Assembly (NCBI GenBank): GCA_041577335.1
Contig: JBFGJH010000007.1
Coordinates: 1 to 64,000 of the forward strand
Reading direction: 5' to 3'
Origin: Acidimicrobiia bacterium
GTDB lineage: Bacteria; Actinomycetota; Acidimicrobiia; Spongiisociales; JAENVV01
Length of the DNA: 64,000 bases
The notes under the pieces were generated by a model. The model did not search any database, was not told where the DNA came from, and saw only the letters and a list, made by a program, of their open reading frames with translations. Position 1 is the stretch's first letter, and each line of letters begins with the position of its first letter. This document shows, piece after piece, positions 25,073 to 38,169 of this stretch. A program made the translations under genes and the position numbers.

Positions 25073-25653
25073 GAGCGGATGCGTTGGATCAATGTCCTCA
25101 TGGTCCACATCACTTCGTCCGCAGCCTCGTCTGGACCGAGACCCAACCGGTCCTGCCATAGGAGATAGACGTCGGAGGTGGTGAGAACAAATGCCAGCTT
25201 GGCGAGGTGTTCCAGTTGATCAGGCGGGATCTCAGGATCGACATTACGGAACGCCTCCCGCATTCCATCGAGTCGCTCGGGCGTCCCCTGGATGCGCACA
25301 TCGCGCCCGATCCGCGAGGCGAATGCGGCTCTCGTCAGATCGTCGGTGTTCTCGAAGTGGTGGAACACCTTGCGGACGATTTCGTCGACTTCTTCCATGG
25401 TCTCTGGAAGAGACTCAACCTCGATGCCGGATCTCCGCCCGGCGTGGGGGATGAGTGCCTTGAGCAATCCTGCCTTGTCGCCGAAATGCCGGTAGATGGT
25501 TCCCACCGACACACCGGCCCTCTCGGCCACTGCGGGGACCGACAGAGTATCGACGCCCTCGGCGAGAACCTCCACGACGGCGTCGAGAATGCGGTCGCGG
25601 GTCGCTGCGGCCTGGTCATCCCTGAGTTGTGAATCGTATTTGCGCGTGGTCAT
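25069..25653 (-). CDS. TetR/AcrR-family regulator
   Basis: TRDRILDAV...VAERAGVSVGTIYRHFGDK HTH. Confidence 0.93.
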   Translation of the reverse strand: MTTRKYDSQLRDDQAAATRDRILDAVVEVLAEGVDTLSVPAVAERAGVSVGTIYRHFGDKAGLLKALIPHAGRRSGIEVESLPETMEEVDEIVRKVFHHFENTDDLTRAAFASRIGRDVRIQGTPERLDGMREAFRNVDPEIPPDQLEHLAKLAFVLTTSDVYLLWQDRLGLGPDEAADEVMWTMRTLIQRIRS

Positions 25654-25675
25654 CGTTCTGCTCAACGGATCGCCT

Positions 25676-25708
25676 ATTGATTATAGGATTCGTTTAGTCA
25701 ATTGTCAA
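25676..25708 (-). promoter_or_regulatory. consensus housekeeping-sigma promoter of tetR with overlapping operator
   Basis: TTGACA (25708-25703)-N17-TATAAT (25685-25680) on the minus strand; inverted repeat ATTGATTA/TAGTCAAT (25676-25683/25695-25702). Confidence 0.85.
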
Positions 25709-25819
25709 CCGCTGAATCGGAAGGAGGTCAAGGTCGTGTGCCTCCCTGTTCCTGGTGGGAGGCCTCATCGAGGTGGGCGGCTCACCGTCGCGGGATAGTC
25801 GACTCCGAGCCGTTGCGAG

Positions 25820-25853
25820 GGCGGGGCGGTCGGTCCAACCAAACCACCCCGCC
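25820..25853 (-). terminator. hairpin after the cupredoxin gene
   Basis: GGCGGGGTGGT...ACCGCCCCGCC on the minus strand (one G-U pair), about 15 nt after the stop. Confidence 0.5.
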
Positions 25854-25868
25854 GATCCAGCTGGCAGT

Positions 25869-26597
25869 TCAGTCCGTCACGATCAGCTGGCCGGTCATCG
25901 ACTGGTGGCCGGGGATGCTGCATACGAAGTCGTAGGTGCCCTGGGCCGCTTCGCCCAGGTCGATGCGCCGGGCCTTGCCGGCGGGCAACTGCAGCTCGAT
26001 GCCGAGCTCGGGAACCGAGAAGGCGTGGTGGGACATCTCCGGGTTGTCGATCCACAGACCGCCTTCGTCGAGATCCACCTCCACCATCCCCGGAGCAAAG
26101 GCGAACCCGTCGACGGCGAGAACCACGTCACCAGGTTGTGCCAGCTCGGTGGTCGTCATCGAGGAGATGAAGATCGCAGCCGCCACACCGATACCGAACA
26201 CACCGAGGGCCGCCCAGCGGGCCGGTCCGGCCCGATCGGGTGCCCAGCCTCGCAGCAAGCCGATCCCTCCAACCAACGCCAACGCGATCGCCAACGTCCC
26301 GAACAGTGCCGGCGCGAATGATGCAGCCGACTCCGGGTGCCGGAGGTCGCCGGCGAACGCCAGATTGGCCGCCATCACGAGCGCCGCCAGGACGGTGAAG
26401 GCGATCACACGGGACCGCTTGCCCGTCCGCAGCGCCCGGGCGCCGATGGCGAACAGCACCGCCACCAGCGTCATGAACGGGTCGAAGAACAGCGACCCGG
26501 CCTGGAGAACGACGGCCCAGACCACGAAGGCCCAGGCGCCGGTTTGGGCAACCGTGCGCCACGTCGTGGTCCGTCCGCCTGTGGTTGTCTCAGTCAT
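25869..26597 (-). CDS. multi-pass membrane protein with C-terminal cupredoxin domain
   Basis: About five TM helices, then FAFAP, N.EMSHHAF and YDFVCSIPGHQSMTG type-1 Cu ligands (H, C, H, M); AAGGAGG RBS. Confidence 0.82.
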   Translation of the reverse strand: MTETTTGGRTTTWRTVAQTGAWAFVVWAVVLQAGSLFFDPFMTLVAVLFAIGARALRTGKRSRVIAFTVLAALVMAANLAFAGDLRHPESAASFAPALFGTLAIALALVGGIGLLRGWAPDRAGPARWAALGVFGIGVAAAIFISSMTTTELAQPGDVVLAVDGFAFAPGMVEVDLDEGGLWIDNPEMSHHAFSVPELGIELQLPAGKARRIDLGEAAQGTYDFVCSIPGHQSMTGQLIVTD

Positions 26598-26765
26598 GTC
26601 ATCCCTCCTTGGTTCTGAGTGAGCCGGTGCTCCGCCGACCGGGTGTACGTCGGCCGGGTTTCTGTTCGATGCCTTCACGACCGCTCCTTTCGCCGGGTCG
26701 GTTTGTCCTGGTTCCAAGGTGCCTGGTCCGGGTGCTTCCGTCGATGGGGGTAGCCCGCCAGTCAG

Positions 26766-26783
26766 GGTGCGGGTTCCCTCATT
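26766..26783. promoter_or_regulatory. operator copy 1 (GGTGNGG-N4-CCNCACC family)
   Basis: GGTGCGG-GTTC-CCTCATT upstream of the cupredoxin gene. Confidence 0.6.
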
Positions 26784-26796
26784 CGGTTCGTGGGGA

Positions 26797-27600
26797 TCAC
26801 GCCTGGTACCTCCGCCCGGCGGCCGCGGCGGTCACGTCGACGCCGCAGCCTTGGAACCGCGCCACGATCTCGTCGATCTCGTCGTCGGTGCGTGCGGGGT
26901 CGTGGTGGAACAACGCCAGGCGCCGAACGACATGGCGGCGGGCGAGGTCGATCACGTACTCCACGCTGGAGTGACCGAGAAACGCCTTGTCCCTCATCTC
27001 AGCGGCGGTGTGTTGGGAGTCGTGCAGCAGGAGATCGGCGCCGGCGACCAGATCGACCGGTTCCGATTCCGCTTCGGCGAGCCAGTAGTCCGGGAGGTAG
27101 GCGAACGACGTTGCGCCGTCCGATACCCGGTAGCCGAAGGTGCGGCCCCCCTTGTGCGGGATGTCGCCGGCGAGCACCTCGAATCCCTCGATCACGACGC
27201 GGCCGGCGTCGAGGGCATGGAACCGCCACCGACCCCGGAGTTGCGCCGGCGTGACGGGAAAGTGGGGCGGGCCCATCGCCCGCGACAGCACCTCGACCGG
27301 ATCTTCACCCTGGGCCGGCAGGTAGAGGTCGACTTCGGCGTCGTCCCGGTCGACGGCCGGGGCGAAGGGCAGTCCATGGGTGTGATCCCAGTGGAGGTGG
27401 GTGAGGAGGATCGATCCCCGGAAGGGCTCCGCACCCAGCAAGTCGGACAGCCTGCGCAATCCCGTGCCGGCGTCAAGCACCAGCCGGGGTGTCTCGCCGG
27501 CATTGGCGACGGCGACCGAACTGGTGTCACCGCCGTAGCGGGCGAACTCGGCCCCGGTCGCCGGGGTCGAGCCCCGGCAACCGAGGATGGTCACCGCCAC
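26797..27600 (-). CDS. metallo-beta-lactamase-fold hydrolase (RNase Z/cNMP-phosphodiesterase-like)
   Basis: LGCRGS.P, YGGDTS, LDAGTG, THLHWDH, IPHKG, LPD, GHSS, FHHDP. Confidence 0.88.
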   Translation of the reverse strand: MAVTILGCRGSTPATGAEFARYGGDTSSVAVANAGETPRLVLDAGTGLRRLSDLLGAEPFRGSILLTHLHWDHTHGLPFAPAVDRDDAEVDLYLPAQGEDPVEVLSRAMGPPHFPVTPAQLRGRWRFHALDAGRVVIEGFEVLAGDIPHKGGRTFGYRVSDGATSFAYLPDYWLAEAESEPVDLVAGADLLLHDSQHTAAEMRDKAFLGHSSVEYVIDLARRHVVRRLALFHHDPARTDDEIDEIVARFQGCGVDVTAAAAGRRYQA

Positions 27601-28593
27601 TCAGCCTTCCTCCCGTCGGTGGCCCGAGGCCACTTCGGCCAGGTCTCCCCTATCCAGGGCCTGGCCGCTGACGGCCGCCACCTTGCTGGGAGTCAGCGCC
27701 CTGACGGTCGATGTTCGATTCCCGCCTTCCAGCACGGCCCGCTCGCCGACGATGGCACCGGGTCCGATTTCGGCGACGGTCTCGCCATCGACGTCAACCG
27801 CAAAGACACCGTCGAGCACCAGGTAGATCTCAGCGCCGGGCTCGCCCTGCGTGGTGAGAAGACTGTCCTTGGCCAGCTTGCGGATCTTGGGCTTCAGTCC
27901 CATCAGCATCGAGGAAAGGGAACGCTCGACTTCGCTCTCGACGGCCGCGACCACGGCCTCGTGCTCGACCCCGTGCCACGGCGACCGGTCGTGGTCGAAG
28001 CGGCGCGTCCAGTCGGCCCAGTCGACCAGACCGCTCTTCTCGACCAGCCGGCCACTGTGGTCGTAGATCCAATGGCGGGGGAATGGCGACGCTCCCACCA
28101 CCTCGTGAGGTGCCGAACCGTCGACGCCGATCTCCAGGCCGAGAGTCACCCAGGTGGTAGGGCCGGTGATCCGCATGTAGGGCGGCCGGTCGATCCGTCG
28201 CGGCAACGGCGCCCCCGTCCGAGCCCCCACCGATTGCACGAACCGGGCCGTGCCGTCGGCGATGACGGGCTCCTCCTGGAGGACCGGGAACCCGACCCCG
28301 GGATAGGTGAGCTTCAGCGGCCCTATCCCACCTGAGGTCGAGCCAACCACGGCCCTGCCGCTGTAGCCGGCGTCGACGATCTCGCCTTCCCGGACTTCGA
28401 TCCAGGCGGCCAGCCGGTTGGCGGCTCGCAGGCGATCGGCGGCTTTCAGCTCGTCGAGTTTGCCGTCGGTGATCCTGTCGGGTGGCGGTTGGTCGTAGTG
28501 GCCAATGTTGAGGTCCAGCGGGACCCGGCTCCACCCGGTGACCGCCTCCGACGGGATCCAGCTGATGGATGTGACGGATGATTCGATACGCAT
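27601..28593 (-). CDS. cyclic-nucleotide-binding domain protein with unrecognised N-terminal domain
   Basis: C-terminal QGEPGAEIYLVLDG...GAIVGERAVLEGGNRTSTVRA phosphate-binding cassette; no HTH; GAAGGAGG RBS. Confidence 0.85.
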   Translation of the reverse strand: MRIESSVTSISWIPSEAVTGWSRVPLDLNIGHYDQPPPDRITDGKLDELKAADRLRAANRLAAWIEVREGEIVDAGYSGRAVVGSTSGGIGPLKLTYPGVGFPVLQEEPVIADGTARFVQSVGARTGAPLPRRIDRPPYMRITGPTTWVTLGLEIGVDGSAPHEVVGASPFPRHWIYDHSGRLVEKSGLVDWADWTRRFDHDRSPWHGVEHEAVVAAVESEVERSLSSMLMGLKPKIRKLAKDSLLTTQGEPGAEIYLVLDGVFAVDVDGETVAEIGPGAIVGERAVLEGGNRTSTVRALTPSKVAAVSGQALDRGDLAEVASGHRREEG

Positions 28594-28670
28594 GGGTGTT
28601 CCTCCTTCGGGTACCCCTCCAGCATCCGCCACCGCATCCGTCCGATGAATGGTGCAGCCCTGGTTTTGGA

Positions 28671-28688
28671 GGTGTGGGTTTCCGCACC
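28671..28688. promoter_or_regulatory. operator copy 2, bidirectional
   Basis: GGTGTGG-GTTT-CCGCACC between the divergent cNMP-binding and cyclase genes. Confidence 0.7.
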
Positions 28689-28744
28689 CCGATTGGGCGG
28701 GCGTCACCCTGGTGGCGCCCGGCGGGAGCTCGCACAATGAGGTC

Positions 28745-30049
28745 ATGGCGATCTCTGTGTTTCTGGCCGACGACAACCTGCTGGTCCGCACCGGCGTCCA
28801 GACGCTGATGGAGCTGGCCGGCGACCTCGAGGTGGTTGGCGTAGCGGCGGACTACGCCGGGCTCGTCGATGGGGCGGTCGCCCACCAACCGCAGGTGGTG
28901 GTGACCGACATTCGCATGCCGCCCGACTTCCGCCGGGAGGGCATCGAAGCGGCCAAGCTGGTCCGTAAGCGCCACCCCGGCACGGGCGTGGTGATCCTGT
29001 CGCAGTACGACGACCCGGAGTACGCCGTTGCTCTGCTCTCGGACGGAGCGGCCGGATACGCGTATCTTTTGAAGGACCGGGTGGCCGAGGGTGACCAACT
29101 GGTGCGGGCCGTCCGAGAGGTGGCCACCGGCGGATCGATGCTCGATCCGATGATCGTGGAGGCGTTGACGCGGCCGGTGTCATCGGACGGGCTGCTGGAC
29201 GACGGGGAGGAACGGTTGCTGGACATGGTGGCCGAAGGAACTCCGATCAAGGCGATCGCGCTCGCCCTCGACACCACGCCCGCCGACGTCGACAGCCGGA
29301 TCGAGTCGTTGTTCGTCAAGCTGGCCGATGGTCTCAGCGGCGGCCACCAGGAAGCACTGGACCGGCTGCGGACGCTGCAGCGAGCCATAGCCGACCGAGA
29401 AGAACAAGGCGAAGAGCTTTCCCGACTGCTGCCCGGCGGCGTGGCCGACAAGCTCCGGCGCGAGGGGCGGCGCATCGGCGAGACCGAGGAACTCGACGTC
29501 ACGGTGCTCATGTCCGACATCCGCAGCTACTCGACCATCGCCGAGCGATCCGACCCATCCACCCTCGCCGGCCAGCTCAACCTCCACCGCGCCGAGATGA
29601 ACCGGGCGATTCTCGCCGAGGGCGGCACGGTGATGCAGTTCGTCGGCGACGCCGTGATGGCGGTGTTCGGCGCCCCCGACCCGATGCCCGACCACGCCCA
29701 ACGGGCGGTGTGCGCCGCCGACGCCATGCACGAGGCGCAAGCGCGGGTGAACGACGCCTGGACCGCACAGGGGCTGGAACCGTTTGGCCTGGGCATCGGC
29801 ATCTCGACCGGCACGGTCGCCGCCGCCCTCTTGGGGTCCGAGGAGCGGGTCGAATACTCCGTCGTCGGCGACACTGTCAACCTCACCCAGCGTCTCCAGC
29901 AGTGGGGCGAACCGGGAGAGACGGTGCTGAGCGAAGCGACCTATGCGGCGCTGGCAGCTCCGCCGCCATGCGACGTGATCGAACCGGCGTTGGTGAAAGG
30001 TCGCGAGAAGCCGGTTGCGGCACATCGCTACCCGAGGAGATCGCCATGA
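28745..30049 (+). CDS. response regulator receiver + degenerate LuxR HTH + class III nucleotidyl cyclase
   Basis: REC: LADD, TDIRMPP, LSQY, LLKD. Cyclase: MSDIRSYST, QFVGDAVMAVFG, GIGISTG, YSVVGDTVNLTQRLQ, VKGR. Confidence 0.9.
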   Translation: MAISVFLADDNLLVRTGVQTLMELAGDLEVVGVAADYAGLVDGAVAHQPQVVVTDIRMPPDFRREGIEAAKLVRKRHPGTGVVILSQYDDPEYAVALLSDGAAGYAYLLKDRVAEGDQLVRAVREVATGGSMLDPMIVEALTRPVSSDGLLDDGEERLLDMVAEGTPIKAIALALDTTPADVDSRIESLFVKLADGLSGGHQEALDRLRTLQRAIADREEQGEELSRLLPGGVADKLRREGRRIGETEELDVTVLMSDIRSYSTIAERSDPSTLAGQLNLHRAEMNRAILAEGGTVMQFVGDAVMAVFGAPDPMPDHAQRAVCAADAMHEAQARVNDAWTAQGLEPFGLGIGISTGTVAAALLGSEERVEYSVVGDTVNLTQRLQQWGEPGETVLSEATYAALAAPPPCDVIEPALVKGREKPVAAHRYPRRSP

Positions 30050-32082
30050 CCGACTCGGCTGTTCGTGCCACGATCCGGACGGTCGTCTTCACCTCGGTCG
30101 TCCTCGTCGTCGGGGCTTTCACGACCATGGTATGGAGACACGGCGCCGGCCGGCTGGCCGAGAGCGACGTGCCCACCGCCTTCGTGATCGTCATCGGACT
30201 CGGCGCCGTGGTGTGGGTGGCATCCGGCCAGCAGCCCCGCAACCGGCTGGTGTGGGTACTCACCGCGTTCGTCGCCTCGGTTGCCTGGTTCGCGGCGGCG
30301 ACGGCCATACGAACCATCCTCGCCCCGGAGCTCCCGTTTCGCCTCACCGTGGAGTCCGGCGCCCCGGCCGAGCTACCACGCGCGGCGGCGTGGCTGGAGT
30401 ACGCCGCCCTTCCCCTCTCGAGCTCCGCCTCGCTTCTGCTCATCACGTTCGGGTTGATGCTGTTCCCCGACGGCACACTCCCTTCGAAGCGCTGGCGGCC
30501 GGTGGGCATCGCCGCCGGTGCGGTGCTCGCCATCGGGCTCGTCCGCAACCTCATCATTTGGCACCCCGACAGCACCTACGTCATCGCGGAGCATCCCTTG
30601 TTCCATCTCCTCAGTCCGGTCGACATCGGATTGCCGTTGGTGGCACTGGCTGCGGTCGTCGTCAGATTCAGGCGGTCCGAGGGCGACGAGCGGGCGCGGT
30701 TCAAGTGGGTGGTGTGGGGTCTCGGTGTCTTTGTGCCGCTGACGCTGGTGGGGTGGATGTCGGGGATCACCGTCATCGCCGCCCTCGCCAACTTCGTCTT
30801 GATCGGAACCTATGGCATCGCCATCACCCGCCATCACCTGTTCGACGTCGATGTGGTGATCTCGAAGACGCTGGTGTATGCGGCGCTGGCCGGGTTCATC
30901 GGATTGGTCTACGTGGCCATCGTGGTGGGCGTCGGAGCGTGGGTCGGTACCGGGTCGGAACCGAACCCGGTGCTGGCGGTGGGGGCAACGGCGCTGGTGG
31001 CGGTGGCGTTCCAGCCGGTCCGCCGCCGCCTGGAACGGGTCGCCAACCGGGTGGTGTTCGGCCGGCGAGCCACCCCCTACGAGGTGCTGTCGGAGTTCTC
31101 GCGGCGGGTGGCCGCCACCGGCGGCTCGCTACTCGACGACGCCGCCCGTTGGCTGGCCGAAGGGACGGCGGCGACCCGGGTAGTGGTGTCGCTGCGAATC
31201 GACGGGAAGTCGCGGGAAGCGGCCTCCTGGCCGTCCGCTTCGAACGGGGCGCCTGCCGAGCCGGTGCGGCTGCCCATCGCCGACGGCGGCGTCACGTTGG
31301 GCACCCTCGACCTGTATCTCCCGCCCAACCAGCCGCTCAACGACGAGGATCGGCGTTTGGCCGAGCAGGTGGCGTCGGGCATGGGACTGGCGGTGCGCAA
31401 CCAACTGCTCACCGAGCGGCTCGAAGCGCGGGTGCAGGCCCTGCGAGAATCCCGCCGCCGGCTGGTGGCCGTGCAAGACGAAACCCGGAGACGCCTCGAA
31501 AGGGATCTCCACGACGGCGCCCAACAACAACTCGTGGCGCTGAAAGTGAAGCTCGGGTTGAGCCGGACCATTGCCGACCAAGCCGGCGCCACCCACACCG
31601 CCGACCTGCTGGAGCGGTTGGCCGCCGAAGCCGACGAAGCCGTCGACGCCATGCGCGAATTCGCCCGCGGCGTCTACCCCCCGCTCCTGGAAGCCGAAGG
31701 CCTGACAGCGGCCATCGCCGCCCAAGCCCGACGAGCGCCGCTGCCGGTGGCGGTGAACTCCGATGGCATGGACCGCTACTCCCGCGACGTCGAGGCCACC
31801 GTCTACTTCTGTGTGCTGGAGGCATTGCGCAACACCATCCAACACGCCGGAGCCTCCTCCGCCGCGGTCACCCTTGGCCAAGACAACGGGACCCTCGAGT
31901 TCCGGATCAGCGACGACGGAACCGGCTTCGACCCGACCTCGACCAGCCGCTCCGGACTGATCACCATGACCGACCGGGTCGATGCCCTTGCCGGCCACCT
32001 CACCGTCGCCAGCAGCCCCGCCACGGGCACCACCATCACCGGGACCCTGCCCGTCGATGTTCCCGTGGAGGTGCCGTCGTGA
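30046..32082 (+). CDS. membrane sensor histidine kinase (HisKA_3 type, multi-TM + GAF-like)
   Basis: About nine TM segments, H-box ERDLHDGAQQ, YPPLL, EALRN, DDGTGF; ATGA-coupled to the cyclase gene. Confidence 0.9.
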   Translation: MTDSAVRATIRTVVFTSVVLVVGAFTTMVWRHGAGRLAESDVPTAFVIVIGLGAVVWVASGQQPRNRLVWVLTAFVASVAWFAAATAIRTILAPELPFRLTVESGAPAELPRAAAWLEYAALPLSSSASLLLITFGLMLFPDGTLPSKRWRPVGIAAGAVLAIGLVRNLIIWHPDSTYVIAEHPLFHLLSPVDIGLPLVALAAVVVRFRRSEGDERARFKWVVWGLGVFVPLTLVGWMSGITVIAALANFVLIGTYGIAITRHHLFDVDVVISKTLVYAALAGFIGLVYVAIVVGVGAWVGTGSEPNPVLAVGATALVAVAFQPVRRRLERVANRVVFGRRATPYEVLSEFSRRVAATGGSLLDDAARWLAEGTAATRVVVSLRIDGKSREAASWPSASNGAPAEPVRLPIADGGVTLGTLDLYLPPNQPLNDEDRRLAEQVASGMGLAVRNQLLTERLEARVQALRESRRRLVAVQDETRRRLERDLHDGAQQQLVALKVKLGLSRTIADQAGATHTADLLERLAAEADEAVDAMREFARGVYPPLLEAEGLTAAIAAQARRAPLPVAVNSDGMDRYSRDVEATVYFCVLEALRNTIQHAGASSAAVTLGQDNGTLEFRISDDGTGFDPTSTSRSGLITMTDRVDALAGHLTVASSPATGTTITGTLPVDVPVEVPS

Positions 32083-34184
32083 TCTCCCTCTCCGACCCGA
32101 CCCGTCGCATATTCGGATACCTCATCCTGGCCGGGGCCGTGACGGCGGTCGCCGTCAACGTCTGGACGTCGGTCGCCATGGGCGTCACCGACGACGTGCC
32201 CACGCAGATCGTGCTGGGCACGGTCTTCGGTGTCGTCGGCTGGGTGCTCGTTCGGTCCCAACCCGGCAACAACGCCGTGTGGGCGCTGCTGTGGGGAGCG
32301 CTGTGCGGGGCGTGGAGCGCGGCGCTGGAGACGTTGGCGGTGCGTCGCACCGGGTTCACTCTCGAGGAGATCGCCGACGGGGCGCTGCCGGTGGCGCCGG
32401 CCGCCCTCGACGGGGCCACGGCAATGTTGATCAACCTCAGCAACTGGCTGTGGCTCGGGTACTTCGCAATTCCCATTCACCTGGTGTTGCTGTTCCCGAC
32501 GGGGCGAGCGAGCTCGTTGCGTTGGAGAAGGGTCATGTGGGCGGCGTTCGGAGTGATGGTCGTGTCGGCGTTGGTCGGATTTGTCACATTGGGGCCGTGG
32601 GTCACCCGGCCGTACGACGAGATCTTCAGCTCGCAGATGCTTGGTGCGGTGGGCATGGCAAACCTGCTGCTCCTGCTTGCGGTTCCTGCCTCCCTGGCCA
32701 ATCTCGTCGTGCGGTTCCGCCGCAGCTCGGGCGTGGAACGACTCCAGTTCCGGTGGCTCACCTTATCGGTGGCCGTTCTGGCGTTCTCACTCTTGATCGG
32801 CCTCGCGCTCGACCCGCTGGGGCTGGCGAATATGGCTCCCGGACTGCAGAGCCTGATCTCCACCATCGGCCTGGCAGGGGTTCCGGTCTCCATCGGCATC
32901 GCCATCACCCGGTACCGGCTCTACGACATCGACCTCGTGATCAGCCGGACGCTGGTGTTCGGCGTGCTGGTGGGCTTCATCACCGTGGTCTACGCCGCCC
33001 TGGTGGTCGGGGTCGGGTCGCTGGTGGGCGGTTCGAGCCTGGGCTGGTCGATTGCGGCCACGGCGGTGGTGGCGGTGGTGTTCGAGCCGGTGCGCAACCG
33101 GGTGCAGCGGTGGATCAACCGGCTCGTCTACGGCCGGCGGGCCACCCCTTACGAGGTGCTGTCCGACCTGACCGGACGGCTGGCCGCCACTGAGCGAGAA
33201 GAGGGCCTGTTGGAGCGGATGGCGTCGCAGATCGCCAAGGGCACCGGCGCCCAGTTGGCCACCGTGTGGGTGGCCGACGACACCGGGCTGCGGGCCGTGG
33301 CCTCGGAACCGGCCGAGCATCTGCCCACGTCGGTGGTCGACGGGGTCGATGATCTGCCGGGAACGGTGATTCCGGTCCGGTCGGACGAAACCGTACTCGG
33401 CGCGTTCGCGGTGGAGGCCCGTCGCGGCGACGACCTCACGCCTATCGAACGACGCCTGGTGGAGGATCTGGCCGGTTCGGCGAGCCTGGTGATGCAACGG
33501 CTCCGGCTGGATCAGGCGCTGGAACAGAAAGCAGCCGAGCTGGCCGAGTCGCGGCGCCGGCTGCTCGACGCCCAGGACGTGGAACGACGGCGCCTCGAAC
33601 GCGAGCTCAACGAGGAGGTCAGGCAGCGGGTGGTGGCGTTGAAGCTCGAGCTGGGCATGGCCGCCCGGCAGGCCGAACGGGAGGGAGCCGGCCAGGCGGA
33701 GGCACTGGTGACGCAGATGGCCACCGAAGCTCAAGACGCCATCGACCAGATCCAGGCCCTGGCCCACGGCATCTACCCGCCGCTCCTGGAGGCTGAAGGT
33801 CTGGGCCCGGCGGTCCGGGCGCTGGCGGCCGTCGCCCCCGGCGGCGTGGAGGTGGAGTCGCACCTGGCGGCCCGTCATCCCCTGACCATCGAGGGCGCCG
33901 TCTACATGTGCATCTCGGAGGCGCTCACCAATGCGGTCAAGCACGGCCGGGGCCCCATCCGAGTCGAGCTGTCCGACGTGTCCGGCGACCTGGTGTTTCG
34001 GGTGTCCGATGCGGGGCCCGGCTTCGACTCGGCCACCGTCGCACGGGGGTCCGGCCTCGGCAACATGGCCGATCGACTCGACGCCCTCGGCGGCTCGGTG
34101 ACGATCAGCTCGCGTCCCGGCTCGCCCACAGTGGTGGAGGGGGTCGTGGCGGTGGCGGCGGAGCTGGCGTCGCAGCCGGCTTGA
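32079..34184 (+). CDS. paralogous membrane histidine kinase lacking the phospho-acceptor His
   Basis: Same architecture; H-box reads ERELNEEVRQ; intact EALTNAVKH, DAGPGF, GSGLGNM; GTGA-coupled. Confidence 0.85.
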   Translation: MISLSDPTRRIFGYLILAGAVTAVAVNVWTSVAMGVTDDVPTQIVLGTVFGVVGWVLVRSQPGNNAVWALLWGALCGAWSAALETLAVRRTGFTLEEIADGALPVAPAALDGATAMLINLSNWLWLGYFAIPIHLVLLFPTGRASSLRWRRVMWAAFGVMVVSALVGFVTLGPWVTRPYDEIFSSQMLGAVGMANLLLLLAVPASLANLVVRFRRSSGVERLQFRWLTLSVAVLAFSLLIGLALDPLGLANMAPGLQSLISTIGLAGVPVSIGIAITRYRLYDIDLVISRTLVFGVLVGFITVVYAALVVGVGSLVGGSSLGWSIAATAVVAVVFEPVRNRVQRWINRLVYGRRATPYEVLSDLTGRLAATEREEGLLERMASQIAKGTGAQLATVWVADDTGLRAVASEPAEHLPTSVVDGVDDLPGTVIPVRSDETVLGAFAVEARRGDDLTPIERRLVEDLAGSASLVMQRLRLDQALEQKAAELAESRRRLLDAQDVERRRLERELNEEVRQRVVALKLELGMAARQAEREGAGQAEALVTQMATEAQDAIDQIQALAHGIYPPLLEAEGLGPAVRALAAVAPGGVEVESHLAARHPLTIEGAVYMCISEALTNAVKHGRGPIRVELSDVSGDLVFRVSDAGPGFDSATVARGSGLGNMADRLDALGGSVTISSRPGSPTVVEGVVAVAAELASQPA

Positions 34185-34289
34185 TCAGCTCTCGCCCTCC
34201 CGCCAACGGCGGCCGCCGGGTGAGGACCAGAATCGGCCGTGGAGATGAACCCGACGGCTCCCGCCGTGAGCGCCCGGACCGGGGGAACG

Positions 34290-34327
34290 AAAAAAGAGAG
34301 GGGGAGGGCAATCCTGCCCTCCCCCTC
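34290..34327 (-). terminator. intrinsic terminator
   Basis: 13-bp perfect stem GAGGGGGAGGGCA/TGCCCTCCCCCTC followed by a U-tract on the minus strand. Confidence 0.85.
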
Positions 34328-34339
34328 CGTCTTCTGCGC

Positions 34340-34702
34340 CTAGAGGCCGAAGGCAGCGAGTAGCGACTCGCAGTCCGTCCACGACACCGGCTCGTCGAAG
34401 GGCGCCGGGAACGGCGCCACCGGCACGACGAACGAGTTGTTCTGCGACAGTGCGTTTCCGGCCTGTCCGAAGTGCATGTGCACATGGTGGGCGTGGATCG
34501 GCAGCGCCTGGTTGTTGGCCAGGTCCACGCACTTCCGCACGGAGATCGGGACTTGACCGGTCTCGTCGAGCACGACGCCGAGCACGAGGACGTGACCATG
34601 CTCGGCGAACGGGCTGTCGTGGTCGGGCGTTCCCGCCGCCGGGATGGCCGTGAGCGCCACCAGCAGACCGAATGACACCAGCATGCCCATCAATCGATTC
34701 AT
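34340..34702 (-). CDS. small secreted His-rich protein
   Basis: Signal peptide MNRLMGMLVSFGLLVALTAIPAAG, HGH and HAHHVHMH motifs, two Cys; GGAG RBS; own terminator. Confidence 0.7.
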   Translation of the reverse strand: MNRLMGMLVSFGLLVALTAIPAAGTPDHDSPFAEHGHVLVLGVVLDETGQVPISVRKCVDLANNQALPIHAHHVHMHFGQAGNALSQNNSFVVPVAPFPAPFDEPVSWTDCESLLAAFGL

Positions 34703-34846
34703 GTCGAAACTCCTCCCTGACCGCCACGCGGTCCCCTCGTCTACAGGCGAAATGGTTTCCGCCTCTGCCGGGCGTTCGACTTGCCCGCATGAGTTCACTG
34801 TTCGTGATCGTGCGTGTTCTCGGTATGGTGCTGGCCGAATTTCCCG

Positions 34847-34864
34847 GGTGAGGATTTCCACACG
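34847..34864. promoter_or_regulatory. operator copy 3
   Basis: GGTGAGG-ATTT-CCACACG upstream of the His-rich gene. Confidence 0.68.
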
Positions 34865-34914
34865 TCTGAACGACGAGCCGTCGCGGCGCCGCGAACATGC
34901 AGGACGTTGCCGGC

Positions 34915-35295
34915 TCAGCTTCGTCCGGACCAGGCCGCCGCCAGCGCCCCCGGACCGAAGTCGGACTTGGAGATGAAGGCGATGGCTCCGGATTGGCGGG
35001 CCCGTTCGGCGAACTCCCCCGCTTCGTAGGTGGAGAGGACGACGACGCGGGCGTCGGGGTCGTCGGCCAGGATCCGGCGGGTGGCTTCCAGTCCGTCCAT
35101 GCCCGGCATCTTGATGTCCATCAGCACGAGGTCCGGAGCGAGGTCGGTGAACATCGCCATGCCGTCGGTGGCGTTGCCGGCTTCGCCGGCCACCTCGAAG
35201 CCTTCGGTAAGTTCGATGACCAGGCGGGCGGCGGACCGGAAGGGCTCCTGATCGTCCACGATGAGAACACGCACGGTTTGAGTCATGACTGCCAC
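34915..35295 (-). CDS. single-domain response regulator (receiver only)
   Basis: LIVDD, LMDIKMPGMDG, LST, FISK; no output domain. Confidence 0.9.
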   Translation of the reverse strand: MAVMTQTVRVLIVDDQEPFRSAARLVIELTEGFEVAGEAGNATDGMAMFTDLAPDLVLMDIKMPGMDGLEATRRILADDPDARVVVLSTYEAGEFAERARQSGAIAFISKSDFGPGALAAAWSGRS

Positions 35296-35351
35296 CTGTT
35301 CATCATCGGCTTGTGACCCTCAAGGCACCAGGGGGCAGGCAGGCATTGCCG

Positions 35352-35369
35352 GGTGTGGTTTTCCACACC
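35352..35369. promoter_or_regulatory. operator copy 4 (perfect palindrome)
   Basis: GGTGTGG-TTTT-CCACACC upstream of the receiver-only gene. Confidence 0.72.
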
Positions 35370-35371
35370 TG

Positions 35372-36037
35372 TCATCCGGTGGTCTCGGCGAGGAAGAGGA
35401 GGACAGCGCGCACCCGCCGGTTGGTCTCCTGCTCGGGCAGCAGATCGAGCTTCGTGAAGATCGAGTTGATGTGTTTCTCGACCGCCCGCTCCGACAGGTA
35501 CAGCGCTTCGGCGATGGCCCGGTTCGATTTACCGCCGGCTAGTTCCTCCATGACCTCGCGCTCGCGTGGCGTGAGCCGGTCGACCTTGGAGTTCTGACGT
35601 TTGATGCGGCCCTCCACCAACGCGTCCACGACCTTGGGGTCGATCTTGGACTCGCCGGCGGCTACCAGCTCGACGGCGTCGGCGAGCACGCCGGCGTCGC
35701 CGACTCGTTCTTTGAGGAGATAGGCGATGCCGGCGCTGCCGTCTTCGAGGAGGTGGAGGGCGTAGTCCGGTTCGACGTACTGGCTGAGCACCACCACCCC
35801 GATGTCTGGGTGTTCCGCCCGGACCTGGCGGGCGGCGCGGATTCCCTCGTCGGTGCGGGTGGGCGGCATCCGGATGTCGGTGACCACCACCTCGGGCACG
35901 TGTTCTGCCACGGCGGCGAGCAGCTCGTCGTGGTCCTCGGCGAGCGCCACCACCTCGTAGCCCTCCTGCTCGAGGACGAGACGAACCCCCTCACGGATGA
36001 TGAAGGCGTCGTCGGCGAGTACGACTCGGCGTGACAT
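35372..36037 (-). CDS. NarL/LuxR-family DNA-binding response regulator
   Basis: LADD, TDIRMPP, LLKE, LTPREREV...GKSNRAIA..L.LSERAVEKHINSIFTKL. Confidence 0.95.
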   Translation of the reverse strand: MSRRVVLADDAFIIREGVRLVLEQEGYEVVALAEDHDELLAAVAEHVPEVVVTDIRMPPTRTDEGIRAARQVRAEHPDIGVVVLSQYVEPDYALHLLEDGSAGIAYLLKERVGDAGVLADAVELVAAGESKIDPKVVDALVEGRIKRQNSKVDRLTPREREVMEELAGGKSNRAIAEALYLSERAVEKHINSIFTKLDLLPEQETNRRVRAVLLFLAETTG

Positions 36038-36101
36038 CTGGTGACGATACCTCGTGAAGGTGCCGCGTCAGTGGTCAGCCGGCCACACGTGACGCGGCGC
36101 C

Positions 36102-36512
36102 TCAGCCGCCGCATTCGGCGGCGACGAACGCCACAACGCGCTCGTTGGCCGGGATATCAACGAGGCTCTCCCACTCCGACTGGATCACGTCGAAGGCCGA
36201 AACCGGGTCGAGGCCGGCTTCGAACGCCTCATTGAAACGAAACTCGAGCCGTTGCCAGCTGCCGATGCCGGCGTCGACCGACGGGGCGAGATGGTCGGGA
36301 GAGAGGCGAGCGGCTTCGGTGTAGATGTCCTGGGCACGCTGTGTGGTGGCAATGATCTCAGCCGGCGTCATGTCGACGTCGAACAGGAGCTCTTCTTGCG
36401 CCGAGTCGAGGTATTCGCAGAACGCCGCCGCATCGGACTCTCCGGCGCCGCAGGCAACCAGGAGAATCGCCGAGGCAGCGAGCGCAAGGACCCGCGACTG
36501 GCGAATGGCTAT
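36102..36512 (-). CDS. lipoprotein of unknown function (probable non-canonical start)
   Basis: The frame of the 89-aa ORF extends upstream to IAIRQSRVLALAASAILLVAC-GAG, a complete lipoprotein signal peptide; Cys near each end (FCEY, AECGG). Confidence 0.6.
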   Translation of the reverse strand: MAIRQSRVLALAASAILLVACGAGESDAAAFCEYLDSAQEELLFDVDMTPAEIIATTQRAQDIYTEAARLSPDHLAPSVDAGIGSWQRLEFRFNEAFEAGLDPVSAFDVIQSEWESLVDIPANERVVAFVAAECGG

Positions 36513-37120
36513 TGCTCCAGCCGGTCGATGAGGCGTTGCTGCACGGCGGTGCTGGTGAGGTCGGCCCGAGATCGCTCGATCAGGGCCCGGGCCACGTCAG
36601 TGGTTCGGCGCAGGCCACCGGTCATCCCGTCGGGATAGTCCAGCGAGGCCAGCAGATCGAGCACTTCGGACATCGACGCCAACGCTTCTTCGGCGGATTC
36701 GAGATCTCCGGCTCTCAGAAGGTCGAGCAAGCGTCGACGCATCTCCCCCACCGCCTCGCCGAGGCCATTCAGAAATGGAGCGGCCTCGACTCCAAGCTCG
36801 CTCGGCAATGGGAGGGTGGATCCGCCCATAAGAGCGGCGGTGAGCCGCGCCTCCGCATATTCCTTGGCAGCGTCGGAAACGAAACCTGCGTGGAGGATGT
36901 CGGGATGGTCGGTGAGGGCCTCTTTGCTTTCAGCAAGCTTGGCACCGGCCTCGTCCATCAAGTCGGCAGCAGCACCGCTGTCCCCGCGGTGAAGCGACCG
37001 GATGGCGTTGGCAGACAGCCTGATGACAACGCGCGAGTTCTTGATGCCGAGCTCGCGGGCCGCGAACTTGTCGTCGAGGTGGGAGCGTACGGCCCGTTCG
37101 ATGTCAGAAAGATCGGCCAT
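36509..37120 (-). CDS. Translin/Trax-family protein
   Basis: All-helical; ARE...SRVVIRLSANAIRSLHRG, KEYAEA, FLNGLGEAVGEMRR, LRRTTDVAR..IE. Confidence 0.8.
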   Translation of the reverse strand: MADLSDIERAVRSHLDDKFAARELGIKNSRVVIRLSANAIRSLHRGDSGAAADLMDEAGAKLAESKEALTDHPDILHAGFVSDAAKEYAEARLTAALMGGSTLPLPSELGVEAAPFLNGLGEAVGEMRRRLLDLLRAGDLESAEEALASMSEVLDLLASLDYPDGMTGGLRRTTDVARALIERSRADLTSTAVQQRLIDRLEQ

Positions 37121-37141
37121 GGGCCGCAGCGTAGCGCTGAG

Positions 37142-37594
37142 CTAGGAAGCGACGACCTTGACAGCGGCGCGGTCGGACTGCACGGGGGCAAGCGGAGCCT
37201 CGTCTGCCACAGGGCGTAATTGCGGAAGTGCTCGGGTCTGCTTGATCTGGAGAAGCATCGCCACATACCAAGCGAGGGCACCATCGATGACCAGGTTGAA
37301 CATCAACGCGGTCAACGATGACCGGACCACGGCAAACCCCAGGGTCGCGACGGCGAGAGAAGCCAAGCCGATCAGAATCCGGCGCCTGCGAACGAGAACA
37401 CCGTTCTTGGTTGTCTCGATCCTCGGCATCGCGGTCTGGACTCGGGTTTGCACCCGTGACAACCGCGCCGCGACGCGGTCATACTCCGCGGTCGACGCCA
37501 ACGGCGCCTCACGTCGTGAATTGAGAATCGGTGGGACCAGGAATGCTGCCCACACGAGTCCGATTGCGATGATGACGACCAGCGCTGATCCCAT
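37142..37594 (-). CDS. SepX/GlpR-like membrane protein
   Basis: N-terminal TM ending WAAFLVP, RRRR before a TM hairpin; sits at the end of the galU-moeA-moaC-mog operon as in other actinobacteria. Confidence 0.55.
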   Translation of the reverse strand: MGSALVVIIAIGLVWAAFLVPPILNSRREAPLASTAEYDRVAARLSRVQTRVQTAMPRIETTKNGVLVRRRRILIGLASLAVATLGFAVVRSSLTALMFNLVIDGALAWYVAMLLQIKQTRALPQLRPVADEAPLAPVQSDRAAVKVVAS

Positions 37595-37686
37595 CAGAAA
37601 AGAAATACTCCGCCTCGAGTGCTCGACAGGATAGACAGAAGGTAGCGCGCCATACAATTACCCTCGGGGAATTGTTGAGGCAGAGA

Positions 37687-38169
37687 TCAGTGGTCGGTCG
37701 GTGCCGATCGGATCAGCGCTACCGCGTGGGGCAAGGCTTCGGCGATCGCGGCGAGAGACTCCGTGACCCCCGACACCGATCCGGGCAGGTTGACGATCAG
37801 CGATTGCCCGGCAATGCCGGCCACGGCCCGCGACAACATGCCATGAGGGTTGACGCCAAATGTCTCCGCTCGCATGGCTTCGGGTAGTCCCGGAGCCGGG
37901 CGTTCGATCACCAAAGCGGTCGCTTCGGGAGTGAGGTCGCGACTCGTGAAGCCAGTGCCGCCGGTGGTTACCACCAACGCATAGTCTGCCTGCACCGCCT
38001 CCTTGAGAACCGTCGCAACCGAGTCGACGCCGTCGGGGACCGTCCGGTTCTCGCACACGAATCCGATCGCCGCCAGCCGCTCGGCAGCGGCAGGGCCCGA
38101 CCGGTCGTCGGCTTCACCCCGGCTCACCCTGTCGGACACGGTGATCACGAGCGCCCGCAACGCGCTCAT
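37687..38169 (-). CDS. mog: MogA/MoaB molybdopterin adenylyltransferase
   Basis: ITVSDR, DRSGP, TTGGTG...[16 protein letters not shown]. Confidence 0.93.

Follow-up and report, generated by a model that had tools for sequence, protein, structure and literature searches.

Gene organization of the cluster

The window (the whole 64-kb stretch of DNA that was analyzed) contains a conserved accessory signalling gene set of an uncultured Acidimicrobiia bacterium, assembled from known parts (Table 1). All genes were found at the positions given by the original prediction, including the fusion of a receiver (REC) with a class III cyclase, the divergently transcribed gene for a cyclic-nucleotide-binding (CNB) protein, and the MBL-fold hydrolase gene that abuts the latter. 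The stop codon of the cyclase gene overlaps the start codon of the kinase gene HK1 (ATGA), the HK1 stop codon overlaps the HK2 start codon (GTGA), and at the CNB/MBL junction TGA is followed directly by GTG. The genes around the cluster are housekeeping genes for molybdenum-cofactor biosynthesis and a PEP-utilising enzyme.

Table 1. Genes and sequence elements of the cluster, with positions in the window.
Feature	Position	Strand	Evidence
Membrane cupredoxin protein	25869..26717	-	PF13473, 38.7 bits
MBL-fold phosphodiesterase-type hydrolase, candidate eraser	26797..27600	-	PF12706, 57.9 bits
CNB effector, 330 aa, reader	27601..28593	-	PF00027
Operator copy 1	28671..28687	.	GTGTGG-N4-CCGCAC, CNB/cyclase divergent intergenic region
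Receiver + degenerate LuxR-type HTH remnant + class III nucleotidyl cyclase, writer	28745..30049	+	PF00072, PF00211
HK1, histidine kinase	30046..32082	+	Pfam, NCBIfam: HisKA_3
HK2, HK1 paralogue	32079..34184	+	Pfam, NCBIfam; Asn replaces phospho-His
Intrinsic terminator	34297..34328	-	14-bp stem + T-run
Small exported His-rich protein	34340..34861 (ORF)	-	Signal-peptide-like N-terminus
Operator copy 2	34847..34863	.	Upstream of small exported protein gene
Stand-alone receiver, 126 aa	34915..35295	-	PF00072, 86.1 bits
Operator copy 3	35352..35368	.	GTGTGG-AAAA-CCACAC on minus strand
NarL/LuxR-family response regulator	35372..36037	-	PF00072, 63.6 bits; PF00196, 53.9 bits

The cupredoxin protein is peripheral and does not belong to the cluster core. 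It is polytopic with a C-terminal cupredoxin domain, a Cys/His/Met copper-site-like motif is visible in its sequence, and its likelier start is ATG 26597, with the ribosome-binding site AAGGAGG; of 80 loci, only L012 and L021 have the gene next to the cluster. The small exported His-rich protein, for which ATG 34702 is the likelier start (120 aa; preceded by AGGGAGGAG and provided with a Shine-Dalgarno site), is likewise peripheral. It has a signal-peptide-like N-terminus and His-rich stretches, gave no match in Pfam, NCBIfam or PADLOC, and has a homologue in one of 80 loci (L014). The terminator follows its gene at the point where this gene converges with HK2.

Conservation of the cluster in other genomes

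Of 151 genomes of the class with completeness of 90% or more, 24 carried both the cyclase and the CNB gene, 7 the CNB gene alone, 3 the cyclase gene alone, and 117 neither. The two genes were thus found together in 24 of the 34 genomes holding either one and lay within 2 kb of each other in 20 of these 24, counts that overstate the support because related genomes are non-independent samples. Among 66 related loci with at least 1800 nt of upstream sequence, 39 had the REC-cyclase gene adjacent to and divergent from the CNB gene; it lay downstream in 3 of 73 loci. The REC-cyclase gene is followed in related loci by one to four kinase genes, a receiver-only gene, and a NarL gene. The distribution of the cluster is patchy (27/93 genera), and the conserved linkage spans Acidimicrobiia, Nitriliruptoria-type lineages, one Streptosporangiaceae MAG and Dormiibacterota MAGs. 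The neighbourhood co-occurrence that had been predicted was borne out for the core, namely the cyclase, CNB protein, kinases and receivers.

When the REC-cyclase gene was absent, the CNB gene was flanked by another class III cyclase in 7 of 22 loci according to Pfam, and these alternative cyclases had PAS_6-, AAA16-TPR- or abhydrolase-cyclase architectures. Such different partners provide independent support for the link between the cyclase as writer and the CNB protein as reader. Two results count against reading the cluster as one module: in 15 of these 22 loci, Pfam detected no class III cyclase in the surroundings of the CNB gene, and of the 61 CNB loci for which both flanks were present, 21 had neither the REC-HTH-cyclase nor this MBL gene.

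An ordinary NarL-type two-component system might also lie by chance beside unrelated cyclase, CNB and MBL genes, given that each part comes from a common family and that the genome holds other cyclases and other CNB proteins. This is contradicted by the linkage conserved across the above lineages, by the genome co-occurrence, and by the conserved operator common to the units (see below), and the stop/start codon overlaps also speak against it. We regard chance proximity as very unlikely.

Receiver-cyclase

Full-length NarL-type models align across residues 3–193 of the 434-aa REC-cyclase. The receiver residues D9, D10, D55, S86 and K110, as well as the cyclase residues D258, D302, Q298, D376, N379 and R383, are invariant in 42 of 42 sequences. 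The domain described in the original prediction as an HTH is only a degenerate remnant, which scores below the Pfam threshold. The REC-HTH part is 41–47% identical to the NarL regulator, and by sequence the two are paralogues. The substrate-specifying pair is Gln/Asp (Q298/D376); because Gln stands in place of the substrate-specifying Lys or Glu, the cyclase product is not readable from the sequence.

In cyanobacterial CyaC (Spirulina/Anabaena), a receiver fused to a class III cyclase places cNMP synthesis under phosphorelay control; CyaC is a large hybrid that includes a kinase domain and whose class IIIb site is Lys/Thr. The CyaC catalytic domain (1wc0) appeared in the comparison of the cyclase with solved structures. 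Unlike CyaC, the window protein is NarL-derived, consists of 434 aa, has separate kinases, and is accompanied by a dedicated, linked CNB effector.

The protein is an actinobacterial class III cyclase like Rv0386 and Rv1625c of mycobacteria. Rv1625c is the canonical reference, with Lys296/Asp365, and Rv0386 has the substrate pair Gln/Asn; the Gln/Asp pair of the window can be set beside mycobacterial cyclases with such non-canonical pairs. The domain order CHD-AAA-TPR-LuxR of Rv0386 is reversed in the window (REC-HTH remnant-CHD). Rv0386 is cited for an alternative substrate-binding mode (PMC3466318), and in a 2012 survey the combination of CHD and LuxR among Actinobacteria is reported in Mycobacterium only.

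The closest solved structure is that of the Synechocystis guanylate cyclase Cya2 (2w01; E 1.1e-29 across 154 residues), which shares the class III catalytic domain with aligned metal Asp, Asn and Arg residues. The window protein differs in having Gln298 where Cya2 has Glu488 and, according to the alignment, Asp376 where Cya2 has Ala at the second specifying position. Cya2 is reported to be converted to an adenylate cyclase by E488K and to be regulated by CHASE2, not by a receiver (PMC5995499).

Kinases, receivers and operator

HK1 and HK2 both have multiple TM segments and GAF-like, HisKA_3 and HATPase domains. The H-box of HK1 is intact (DLHDG). HK2 reads ELNEE, with Asn at the phospho-His position, and its N, G1 and G2 boxes seem to be preserved. 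Because HK2 lacks the phospho-His, the postulated two-kinase phosphorelay was wrong. Judging from these motifs, HK2 is a pseudo-kinase or a trans-acting partner; His-less kinase paralogues occur in 12 of 15 loci with at least two kinases. The stand-alone receiver has an intact phospho-acceptor pocket, and its gene adjoins the NarL gene in related loci too. The NarL regulator carries a canonical GerE HTH.

The pattern GGTG(T/A)GG-N-TTTCC(G/A)CAC occurs in three copies, at 28671, 34847 and 35352, the third of which sits 57–73 nt upstream of the receiver-only gene. With a pattern drawn from these same three copies, no fourth match was found in the 64 kb at up to two mismatches (0.17 expected), and 0 of 100 shuffles reached three matches. 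The core of the operator is the palindrome GTGTGG-N4-CCACAC. Strict matches to it in related loci lay upstream of CNB or receiver-only genes in 12 of 14 cases. At up to two mismatches, it was found upstream of the CNB gene in 18 of 79 loci, upstream of the cyclase gene in 12 of 45, and some 74 nt ahead of the receiver-only gene in 7 of 26, compared with 0.009 expected per searched interval. Its recurrence at corresponding positions in related loci independently supports the operator. None of the 24 NarL orthologues had the operator upstream, which counts against a single module, and the NarL gene of the window is preceded by only a half-site with different spacing. The original prediction of an operator shared by most units is corrected accordingly: none of the three copies lies ahead of the NarL gene. 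The candidate binder of the operator is probably the NarL regulator.

CNB effector

The start of the 330-aa CNB protein was confirmed by homologues of 329–350 aa, and more than 7900 homologues were found. It consists of a beta-rich orphan N-terminal domain (residues 1 to about 220) and a C-terminal CNB domain (AF2 model, pLDDT 90.8). The C-terminal domain matches CNB folds at Z 13–14; in its phosphate-binding cassette, Glu is present in all 52 sequences and Arg in 46 of them. The N-terminal output domain has no Pfam family, and its sole fold match is an uncharacterised Bacillus protein (3c5p; Z 12.1–12.7).

An effector output domain without assigned function, together with the patchy distribution, would also suit a Pycsar-like anti-phage pair, in which a cyclase makes cCMP or cUMP upon infection and an effector with a CNB domain causes cell death or arrest. 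The cyclase domain is matched by PADLOC PycC models at up to 68.6 bits and the CNB domain by PycTIR CNB models at about 40 bits, and the fold matches include the PycTIR CNB structure 8jsk (Z 12.4). However, none of the PADLOC scores exceeds the generic Pfam score of the cyclase domain (79.7 bits), and they thus indicate no more than class III homology. The effector lacks TIR and TM domains, the cyclase carries an intact receiver and lies in a two-component operon whose operator is conserved, and the neighbours are the housekeeping genes mentioned above. Moreover, the proteins are 50–80% identical across classes, unlike fast-evolving defence genes. A defence function is highly improbable.

MBL hydrolase

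The THLHWDH motif and all metal ligands of the MBL protein are invariant in 24 of 24 orthologues. Atypical class-II cNMP phosphodiesterases of PF12706, such as M. tuberculosis Rv1339, C. glutamicum CpdA and B. subtilis YhfI, are described as relatives of RNase Z with the signature [T/S]HxHxDH (PMC9293780). The MBL protein resembles them in fold, Pfam family, motif, RNase Z kinship and length (~260 aa). It differs in belonging to a separate subfamily that always adjoins the CNB gene, and this predicted hydrolase scores far under the cut-off of the cNMP-PDE model NF041851, an NCBIfam equivalog (about 44 bits against 400), and level with its RNase Z score.

All 10 MBL matches of at least 230 bits in the 151 genomes lie within 50 nt of a CNB gene. 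The MBL gene is present in 10 of 31 CNB-positive genomes; its absence from the other 21, and from 21 of 38 cyclase-bearing loci with both flanks, counts against the module reading. The MBL hydrolase is an optional member of the cluster: its expected co-occurrence was found in only about one third of cases, although each close copy directly adjoins the CNB gene.

Within the same module, the MBL protein might be not the eraser but a phosphodiesterase or nuclease for RNA 3' ends, 2',3'-cyclic phosphates or another diester, working with or under the CNB protein in the manner of CNB-regulated MBL enzymes, but in trans. Its best solved relative is indeed RNase Z (profile E 4e-11, versus 0.49 for Apyc1), and the RNase Z and cNMP-PDE models of NCBIfam tie in 24 of 24 members. 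The translational coupling with the CNB gene and the one-sided dependence, in which close MBL genes always lie beside a CNB gene and CNB genes mostly lack an MBL gene, point the same way, as does a better Rv1339-like PDE elsewhere in the genome (C40; 178.9 bits, versus 44 for the cluster protein), to which the cluster protein is 32% identical across 95 aa. Against this, the motif and PF12706 fit the atypical class-II enzymes, themselves described as RNase Z relatives, the order CNB-MBL-cyclase in two loci (L043 and L064) again gives the MBL protein a cNMP context, and the genome carries a separate RNase Z candidate (C35). We consider a role other than eraser rather unlikely.

Proposed signalling circuit

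The idea of one dedicated module is retained for the conserved core and the writer-reader link, but not for its two-kinase, REC-HTH and self-contained aspects. "Self-contained" was an overstatement, as the genome has two further CNB proteins, at least four further cyclase loci, and the much better Rv1339-like PDE.

We propose that the polytopic HK1, probably together with the His-less HK2, senses some membrane or envelope cue and phosphorylates three paralogous receivers. The NarL regulator probably binds the GTGTGG-N4-CCACAC palindromes, and its targets would be the CNB-MBL unit, the cyclase-kinase operon, the receiver-only gene and the gene for the small exported His-rich protein. The stand-alone receiver may serve as a phosphate sink or modulator. 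The third receiver is joined via the degenerate HTH and a helical linker to the class III cyclase; phosphorylation would drive dimerisation and thereby bring the two-subunit active site together. The product would be cAMP or cGMP; the invariant Gln/Asp pair does not tell which. This nucleotide would bind the 330-aa protein at its PKA/PKG-type CNB domain and switch the orphan N-terminal domain. In clusters that have the MBL gene, which is coupled in translation to the CNB gene, hydrolysis of the messenger would fall to its product, a phosphodiesterase of the atypical class-II-like type. It is probable that the cluster, with this whole circuit, constitutes a single accessory module for signalling in Acidimicrobiia and in related Actinomycetota and Dormiibacterota.

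Organization of the gene cluster

The source metagenome-assembled genome (MAG) comprises 3.38 Mb in 128 contigs and is 90.75% complete, and the window lies on contig C7. Named homologues and the related loci assign it to Acidimicrobiia. Gene calls based on ORF listing and on Pfam and NCBIfam scans confirmed the set of cluster genes described in the original prediction. The genes encode a class III cyclase fused to a receiver (REC-cyclase), two membrane kinase paralogues (HK1 and HK2), a cyclic-nucleotide-binding (CNB) protein, an MBL-fold hydrolase, a stand-alone receiver (REC-only), a NarL-type response regulator and two further proteins.

Features of the cluster and its flanks, with the basis of each annotation
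Feature	Position	Strand	Basis or remark
PEP-utilising enzyme, 745 aa	22922-25159	-	PPDK_N and mobile domain
ORF	25207-25632	+	No family match; may be spurious
Promoter match	25680-25708	-	Sigma-70 type, TTGACA-17-TATAAT, 12/12
Polytopic membrane protein with C-terminal cupredoxin domain	25869-26717	-	Likelier start ATG 26597, AAGGAGG site
MBL-fold hydrolase	26797-27600	-	PF12706, 57.9 bits (cut-off 27)
CNB protein, 330 aa, CNB domain C-terminal	27601-28593	-	Pfam/NCBIfam scan
Operator copy	28671
Receiver and class III cyclase (REC-cyclase), 434 aa	28745-30049	+	Pfam/NCBIfam scan
HK1: multi-TM, GAF-like, HisKA_3, HATPase	30046-32082	+	Pfam/NCBIfam scan
HK2: domain layout as HK1	32079-34184	+	Pfam/NCBIfam scan
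Small exported His-rich protein	34340-34861	-	Likelier start ATG 34702, preceded by AGGGAGGAG
Operator copy	34847
Stand-alone receiver (REC-only)	34915-35295	-	Pfam/NCBIfam scan
Operator copy	35352
NarL/GerE response regulator	35372-36037	-	Pfam/NCBIfam scan
203-aa protein	36509-37120	-	NCBIfam, under cut-off; annotation uncertain

The cyclase gene overlaps HK1 at ATGA and HK1 overlaps HK2 at GTGA, and the TGA stop codon of the CNB gene directly abuts the GTG start codon of the MBL gene. A terminator with a 14-bp stem ends the gene of the small exported protein, where it converges with HK2. The G+C content of the cluster (0.665-0.71 over 25800-36100) is higher than that of its flanks (0.615-0.645 at 20-26 kb and 0.627-0.652 at 36-38 kb). 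No Rfam family matched 24000-38000 at E up to 0.1, and thus no known riboswitch is present in the long leaders. Among the sequencing runs listed as containing this DNA, those found were marine, soil and sediment metagenomes, and none was an RNA run.

The flanking genes are ordinary: one flank carries the gene of a PEP-utilising enzyme, and the other carries genes for molybdenum-cofactor biosynthesis. With the models for PEP synthase and rifamycin phosphotransferase, the scores of the PEP-utilising enzyme came nowhere near the cut-offs (best 225 bits vs 945). The perfect promoter match faces this gene about 520 nt upstream of its start, and the ORF of doubtful status lies between the two. On the other side, the 203-aa protein matched PRK14562-type models named 'haloacid dehalogenase superfamily protein' (218 bits, below the cut-off of 291) and, in Pfam, YfdX alone and weakly.

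Linkage of the cyclase and CNB genes in related loci

A contig search anchored on the CNB gene gave at least 531 loci, 80 of which were fetched and compared by tblastn with the proteins of the window; the row of locus L028, which has a stop codon in its sequence, was left out of the alignment set. At 90% identity, the CNB homologues formed at least 7900 clusters (the best 120 being 57-98% identical) and the REC-cyclase family at least 7300. The REC-cyclase gene was divergent from and adjacent to the CNB gene in 39 of the 66 loci with at least 1800 nt upstream; in 3 of 73 it was downstream in the same orientation. It was followed by one to four kinase paralogues and then by the REC-only and NarL genes. 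The MBL gene directly followed the CNB gene in 18 of the 73 loci with at least 1000 nt downstream, and was elsewhere within the locus in a few more (L017, L028, L054, L076, L085). When the 61 loci with both flanks were classified, 17 had cyclase and MBL, 21 cyclase only, two MBL only and 21 neither.

In 22 loci without REC-cyclase, 138 candidate ORFs lie within about 3 kb of the CNB gene. We scanned 92 of them, a set that excludes the CNB genes and most ORFs at the outer edges. In seven of these loci, a different class III cyclase adjoins the CNB gene: a PAS_6-cyclase (L018), a cyclase-AAA_16-TPR protein (L043, L048, L060, L064), a short cyclase (L053) or an abhydrolase-cyclase (L091). The gene order in L043 and L064 is CNB-MBL-cyclase. 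The strongest argument for the CNB protein as the reader of a cyclase product is this independent recruitment of other cyclases beside its gene. No class III cyclase was found among the ORFs scanned in the other 15 loci. In five cyclase-less loci (L040, L046, L047, L070, L044), the CNB gene adjoins genes for a MnmA-type tRNA thiolase, a cysteine desulfurase or a Na/Ca exchanger, and this neighbourhood is a second conserved context of the orphan N-terminal domain of the CNB protein.

We also surveyed 151 genomes sampled evenly across the class, each with a completeness of at least 90%. The CNB protein was present in 31 genomes and 27 of 93 genera, and REC-cyclase in 27 genomes. Both occurred in 24 genomes, CNB only in seven, cyclase only in three and neither in 117, counts that are descriptive because related genomes are not independent. 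The two genes were at most 2 kb apart in 20 of the 24 genomes having both, and in G094, one of the cyclase-only genomes, the cyclase gene is at a contig end. The wider MBL family is common, the query matching 95 of the 151 genomes at E up to 1e-20. All 10 hits of at least 230 bits (51-100% identity) were no more than 50 nt away from the CNB gene. Where coordinates were compared in CNB-positive genomes, the lower-scoring hits were on other contigs or far from CNB. The predicted co-occurrence of writer, reader and hydrolase was therefore borne out for the cyclase and the CNB protein, whereas the MBL protein is optional.

According to record titles, the full cluster is present in Acidimicrobiia, Nitriliruptorales, Egibacteraceae, one Streptosporangiaceae MAG and Dormiibacterota MAGs, and the CNB protein alone also in Chloroflexota MAGs. 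None of the three queries had a match in the one further genome from the same genus (G027, 98% complete). In that genome, the MoeA orthologue is 2.5 kb from a contig end and no orthologue of the PEP-utilising enzyme was found. The cluster may be horizontally mobile, being richer in G+C than its flanks, patchy (27 of 93 genera) and not found in G027.

Distribution of the shared operator

A repeat search revealed a 37-nt direct repeat family with the core palindrome GTGTGG-N4-CCRCAC, which occurs three times in the window and nowhere else in its 64 kb at up to two mismatches. The expected number was 0.17 and none of 100 shuffles reached three copies, the pattern having been derived from these same copies. 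In 1.17 Mb of related loci, the strict pattern had 14 matches, 12 of them 72-104 nt upstream of the start of CNB (7) or REC-only (5). When up to two mismatches were allowed, it was found upstream of CNB in 18 of 79, cyclase in 12 of 45 and REC-only in 7 of 26 cases, against a background of 0.009 per 141-nt window; the matches came mostly from the closer relatives (L012-L038). It was absent upstream of all 24 NarL orthologues at the same tolerance, and the window has only GTGTGG...CCAC with 8-nt spacing at this position. Thus, the proposed operator before most units is real in the window but does not extend to NarL. A TAnnnT-like box (e.g. TATCGT) lies only a few bases upstream of the start codon in the NarL orthologues and in the window (36038-36060), suggesting that NarL may be expressed from this box in a leaderless, non-autoregulated manner.

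The receiver-cyclase has a Gln/Asp substrate site

The cyclase domain scored 79.7 bits with PF00211 (cut-off 21.9). In an alignment of the window's protein with full-length, stop-free matches from 41 loci, the metal ligands D258 and D302 and the transition-state residues N379 and R383, all in one chain as in the homodimeric type, were invariant (42/42) and aligned with the same residues of 2w01, 3r5g and 1wc0. The receiver residues D9, D10, D55, S86 and K110 were likewise invariant (42/42). The corresponding DD, D, S/T and K were seen in REC-only and NarL, and PF00072 scores were 54.6, 86.1 and 63.6 bits for REC-cyclase, REC-only and NarL, respectively.

In class III enzymes, the substrate-specifying pair is Lys/Asp in adenylate cyclases and Glu/Cys-Ser-Gly-Ala in guanylate cyclases. 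Neither canonical pair was found in REC-cyclase: Gln298 occupies the Lys/Glu position and Asp376 the second specifying position in all 42 sequences. The protein is therefore a class III cyclase that is assignable neither as an adenylate nor as a guanylate cyclase. The closest solved domain is that of the guanylate cyclase Cya2 (2w01; E 1.1e-29), whose Glu488 aligns with Gln298. Replacement of Glu488 by Lys is reported to convert Cya2 to an adenylate cyclase (PMC5995499), and Lys296/Asp365 is described as the canonical pair of Rv1625c (PMC4174876).

The helix-turn-helix (HTH) attributed to the cyclase proved to be degenerate. GerE (PF00196) matched one of eight orthologues, at 12.9 bits against a cut-off of 23.5, and the recognition-helix positions were not conserved across the 42 orthologues. 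Full-length NarL-type NCBIfam models nonetheless align across the middle segment, including the HTH, and we therefore regard this segment as a remnant, which is more likely to serve as a dimerisation or linker element than as a DNA reader. The REC-HTH part of the cyclase and the NarL regulator share 41-47% identity, which suggests that REC-cyclase is a NarL paralogue that gained a cyclase domain. Annotations of the family are generic only, e.g. 'class 3 adenylate cyclase/DNA-binding NarL/FixJ family response regulator'. In a 2012 survey of actinobacterial LuxR proteins, cyclase-LuxR fusions are reported only from Mycobacterium, in a domain order opposite to that found here. Two short contigs of genome G000 (C107 and C108) carry near-duplicate tandem-cyclase ORFs, with 1274-aa frames and PF00211 hits at the same coordinates; this pair reflects either duplication in the assembly or recent paralogy.

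One of the two kinase paralogues lacks the phospho-accepting His

HK1 has an H-box with intact His (ERDLHDG) and scored 39 bits with HisKA_3 and 40.5 bits with HATPase_c. In HK2, the phospho-accepting His is absent from the H-box (ERELNEE) and replaced by Asn, and the N, G1 and G2 boxes are visible in the sequence; the cluster thus does not encode two kinases as proposed. The membrane domains of HK1 and HK2 had no family match in Pfam or NCBIfam.

Among 55 DHp hits across the related loci, the phospho-His position was occupied by H in 41, D in seven, N in four, G in two and R in one. One or more copies had N, D, R or G in place of the His in 12 of the 15 loci with two or more paralogues (L013, L015, L019, L029, L034, L039, L049, L050, L063, L069, L077 and L086), and the cyclase-proximal copy keeps its His in 11 of these 12; the other three loci (L027, L038, L055) have His in all copies. 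The retention of a His-less paralogue with intact membrane and ATPase domains suggests a kinase/pseudo-kinase pair, in which the pseudo-kinase may act as a heterodimer partner or modulator.

The MBL-fold hydrolase is a candidate phosphodiesterase

The His and Asp metal ligands of the binuclear site of the MBL protein were invariant in 24 of 24 orthologues. The motif is T-H-L-H-W-D-H in the window; among the orthologues, its first His is preceded either by T/S or by G. The signature [T/S]HxHxDH is described as defining the 'atypical class-II' cNMP phosphodiesterases of PF12706, which are related to RNase Z, and their prototype Rv1339 as hydrolysing 3',5'-cAMP, 3',5'-cGMP and 2',3'-cNMPs (PMC9293780). 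The window's protein shares both the family and the signature with these enzymes.

The protein scored 44.1 bits with the equivalog-level model NF041851, below the cut-off of 400 and level with the RNase Z model (43.7 bits), and its best solved relatives by profile are RNase Z enzymes. The same genome encodes a much better Rv1339-like protein on contig C40 (178.9 bits; 32% identical to the MBL protein over 95 residues) and an RNase Z candidate on contig C35. The MBL protein therefore represents a third, CNB-linked subfamily of phosphodiesterase-type MBL enzymes. The most economical reading is that it is a candidate cNMP 'eraser'. Complex prediction for the CNB and MBL proteins gave a score of 0.00, which is no answer and evidence neither way.

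The effector combines a CNB domain with an orphan N-terminal domain

An AlphaFold2 model of the CNB effector had a pLDDT of 90.8. Residues ~220-330 form the CNB domain, which matched HCN, PKG, PKA and CRP domains with Z of 13-14 and, by profile comparison, PKGs with E 5e-30. PF00027 matched all 52 family members (59.6 bits in the effector). In the phosphate-binding cassette, G-E-R-A-x-L-E-G-G-x-R-T-[S/A]-T, the Glu was conserved in 52, the Arg in 46 and the following Thr in 48 of the 52. An Arg-Thr pair is typical of cGMP-capable domains (PKG, CNG, HCN) and serves here as a hint only.

No Pfam family covered the N-domain (residues 1-~220) in any of the 52 members at E up to 1. The only recurrent extra Pfam hit was Cupin_2 (26/52), which falls inside the CNB domain in the window's protein. 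Folded alone, the N-domain had a pLDDT of 81.6. Its sole fold match was an uncharacterised protein of Bacillus anthracis, 3c5p, over 174 aligned residues (Z 12.1, rmsd 3.8); Taspase and lmo2686 came next, at Z 5.2, and were taken as noise. Open-access papers and preprints retrieved for 3c5p/BAS0735 were all unrelated.

A full HMMER scan of 1.84 billion representatives detected 1137 relatives of the N-domain at E up to 0.001, and 28 of them, chosen for unusual length, were scanned for domains. Eight carried CNB domains (one has two, and one also an Mpo1-like domain), one carried a TrkA_N domain and 19 had no family, five of these being the size of the domain alone (228-253 aa). Thus, the N-domain is a separate module that tends to join ligand-binding regulatory domains. 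In P0223, a 591-aa relative, the orphan domain lies C-terminal to a TrkA_N (RCK-type) domain rather than N-terminal to a CNB domain, which suggests that this output module may be controlled by other small ligands too.

A probable signalling pathway and its relation to known systems

The original prediction described one dedicated, self-contained module. The conserved linkage supports a dedicated module in part, but it is not insulated: the genome also encodes two other CNB proteins, cyclase domains at at least four other loci and the phosphodiesterase candidate on C40, so that self-containment is not borne out. In its most probable working, the kinase would phosphorylate three receivers, corresponding to a transcription arm, a cyclase arm and a sink. 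The cyclase arm would produce a cNMP that is read by the CNB effector, and the optional MBL phosphodiesterase would act on this cNMP.

We also considered a Pycsar anti-phage system and rejected it: the cyclase is receiver-fused and not a stand-alone PycC, the CNB protein has no TIR or TM killing domain, and the PADLOC hits were at the level of generic homology only.

Our tentative suggestion, which we consider rather less probable than its negation, is that the cluster is a widespread dedicated pathway for cGMP or another non-cAMP nucleotide in soil and marine Actinomycetota and Dormiibacterota. In such a pathway, the phosphorylation-gated cyclase, with its invariant Gln/Asp and Cya2 as its nearest solved relative, would make the messenger; the PKG-like CNB domain with its R-T-[A/S]-T cassette would read it; and a heterodimer of the true kinase and the His-less pseudo-kinase would control the input.

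Searches of open-access papers and preprints on adenylate cyclase and CNB in Acidimicrobiia, and on response-regulator class III cyclases in Actinobacteria, found no description of the cluster. The catalytic parts all belong to known families. By the literature searched, the apparently new elements are the putative NarL-derived REC-HTH remnant-cyclase with a Gln/Asp site, the CNB effector with a predicted 3c5p-like orphan domain, the CNB-linked MBL subfamily and the recurrent His-less kinase paralogue.

To our knowledge, nearly all that is known of cyclic-nucleotide signalling in Actinomycetota comes from mycobacteria, corynebacteria and streptomycetes. The cluster described here is abundant in environmental data and joins two-component input, writer, reader and probable eraser in one place, and this linkage therefore provides several testable items. 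These are a set of candidate physiological partners for the orphan domain, a naturally occurring cyclase site with the non-canonical Gln/Asp pair, and a recurrent kinase/pseudo-kinase pair. If the product is cAMP, the cluster would be a tidy but unsurprising addition to known signalling architectures; if it is cGMP, the known range of bacterial cGMP signalling would be greatly widened.
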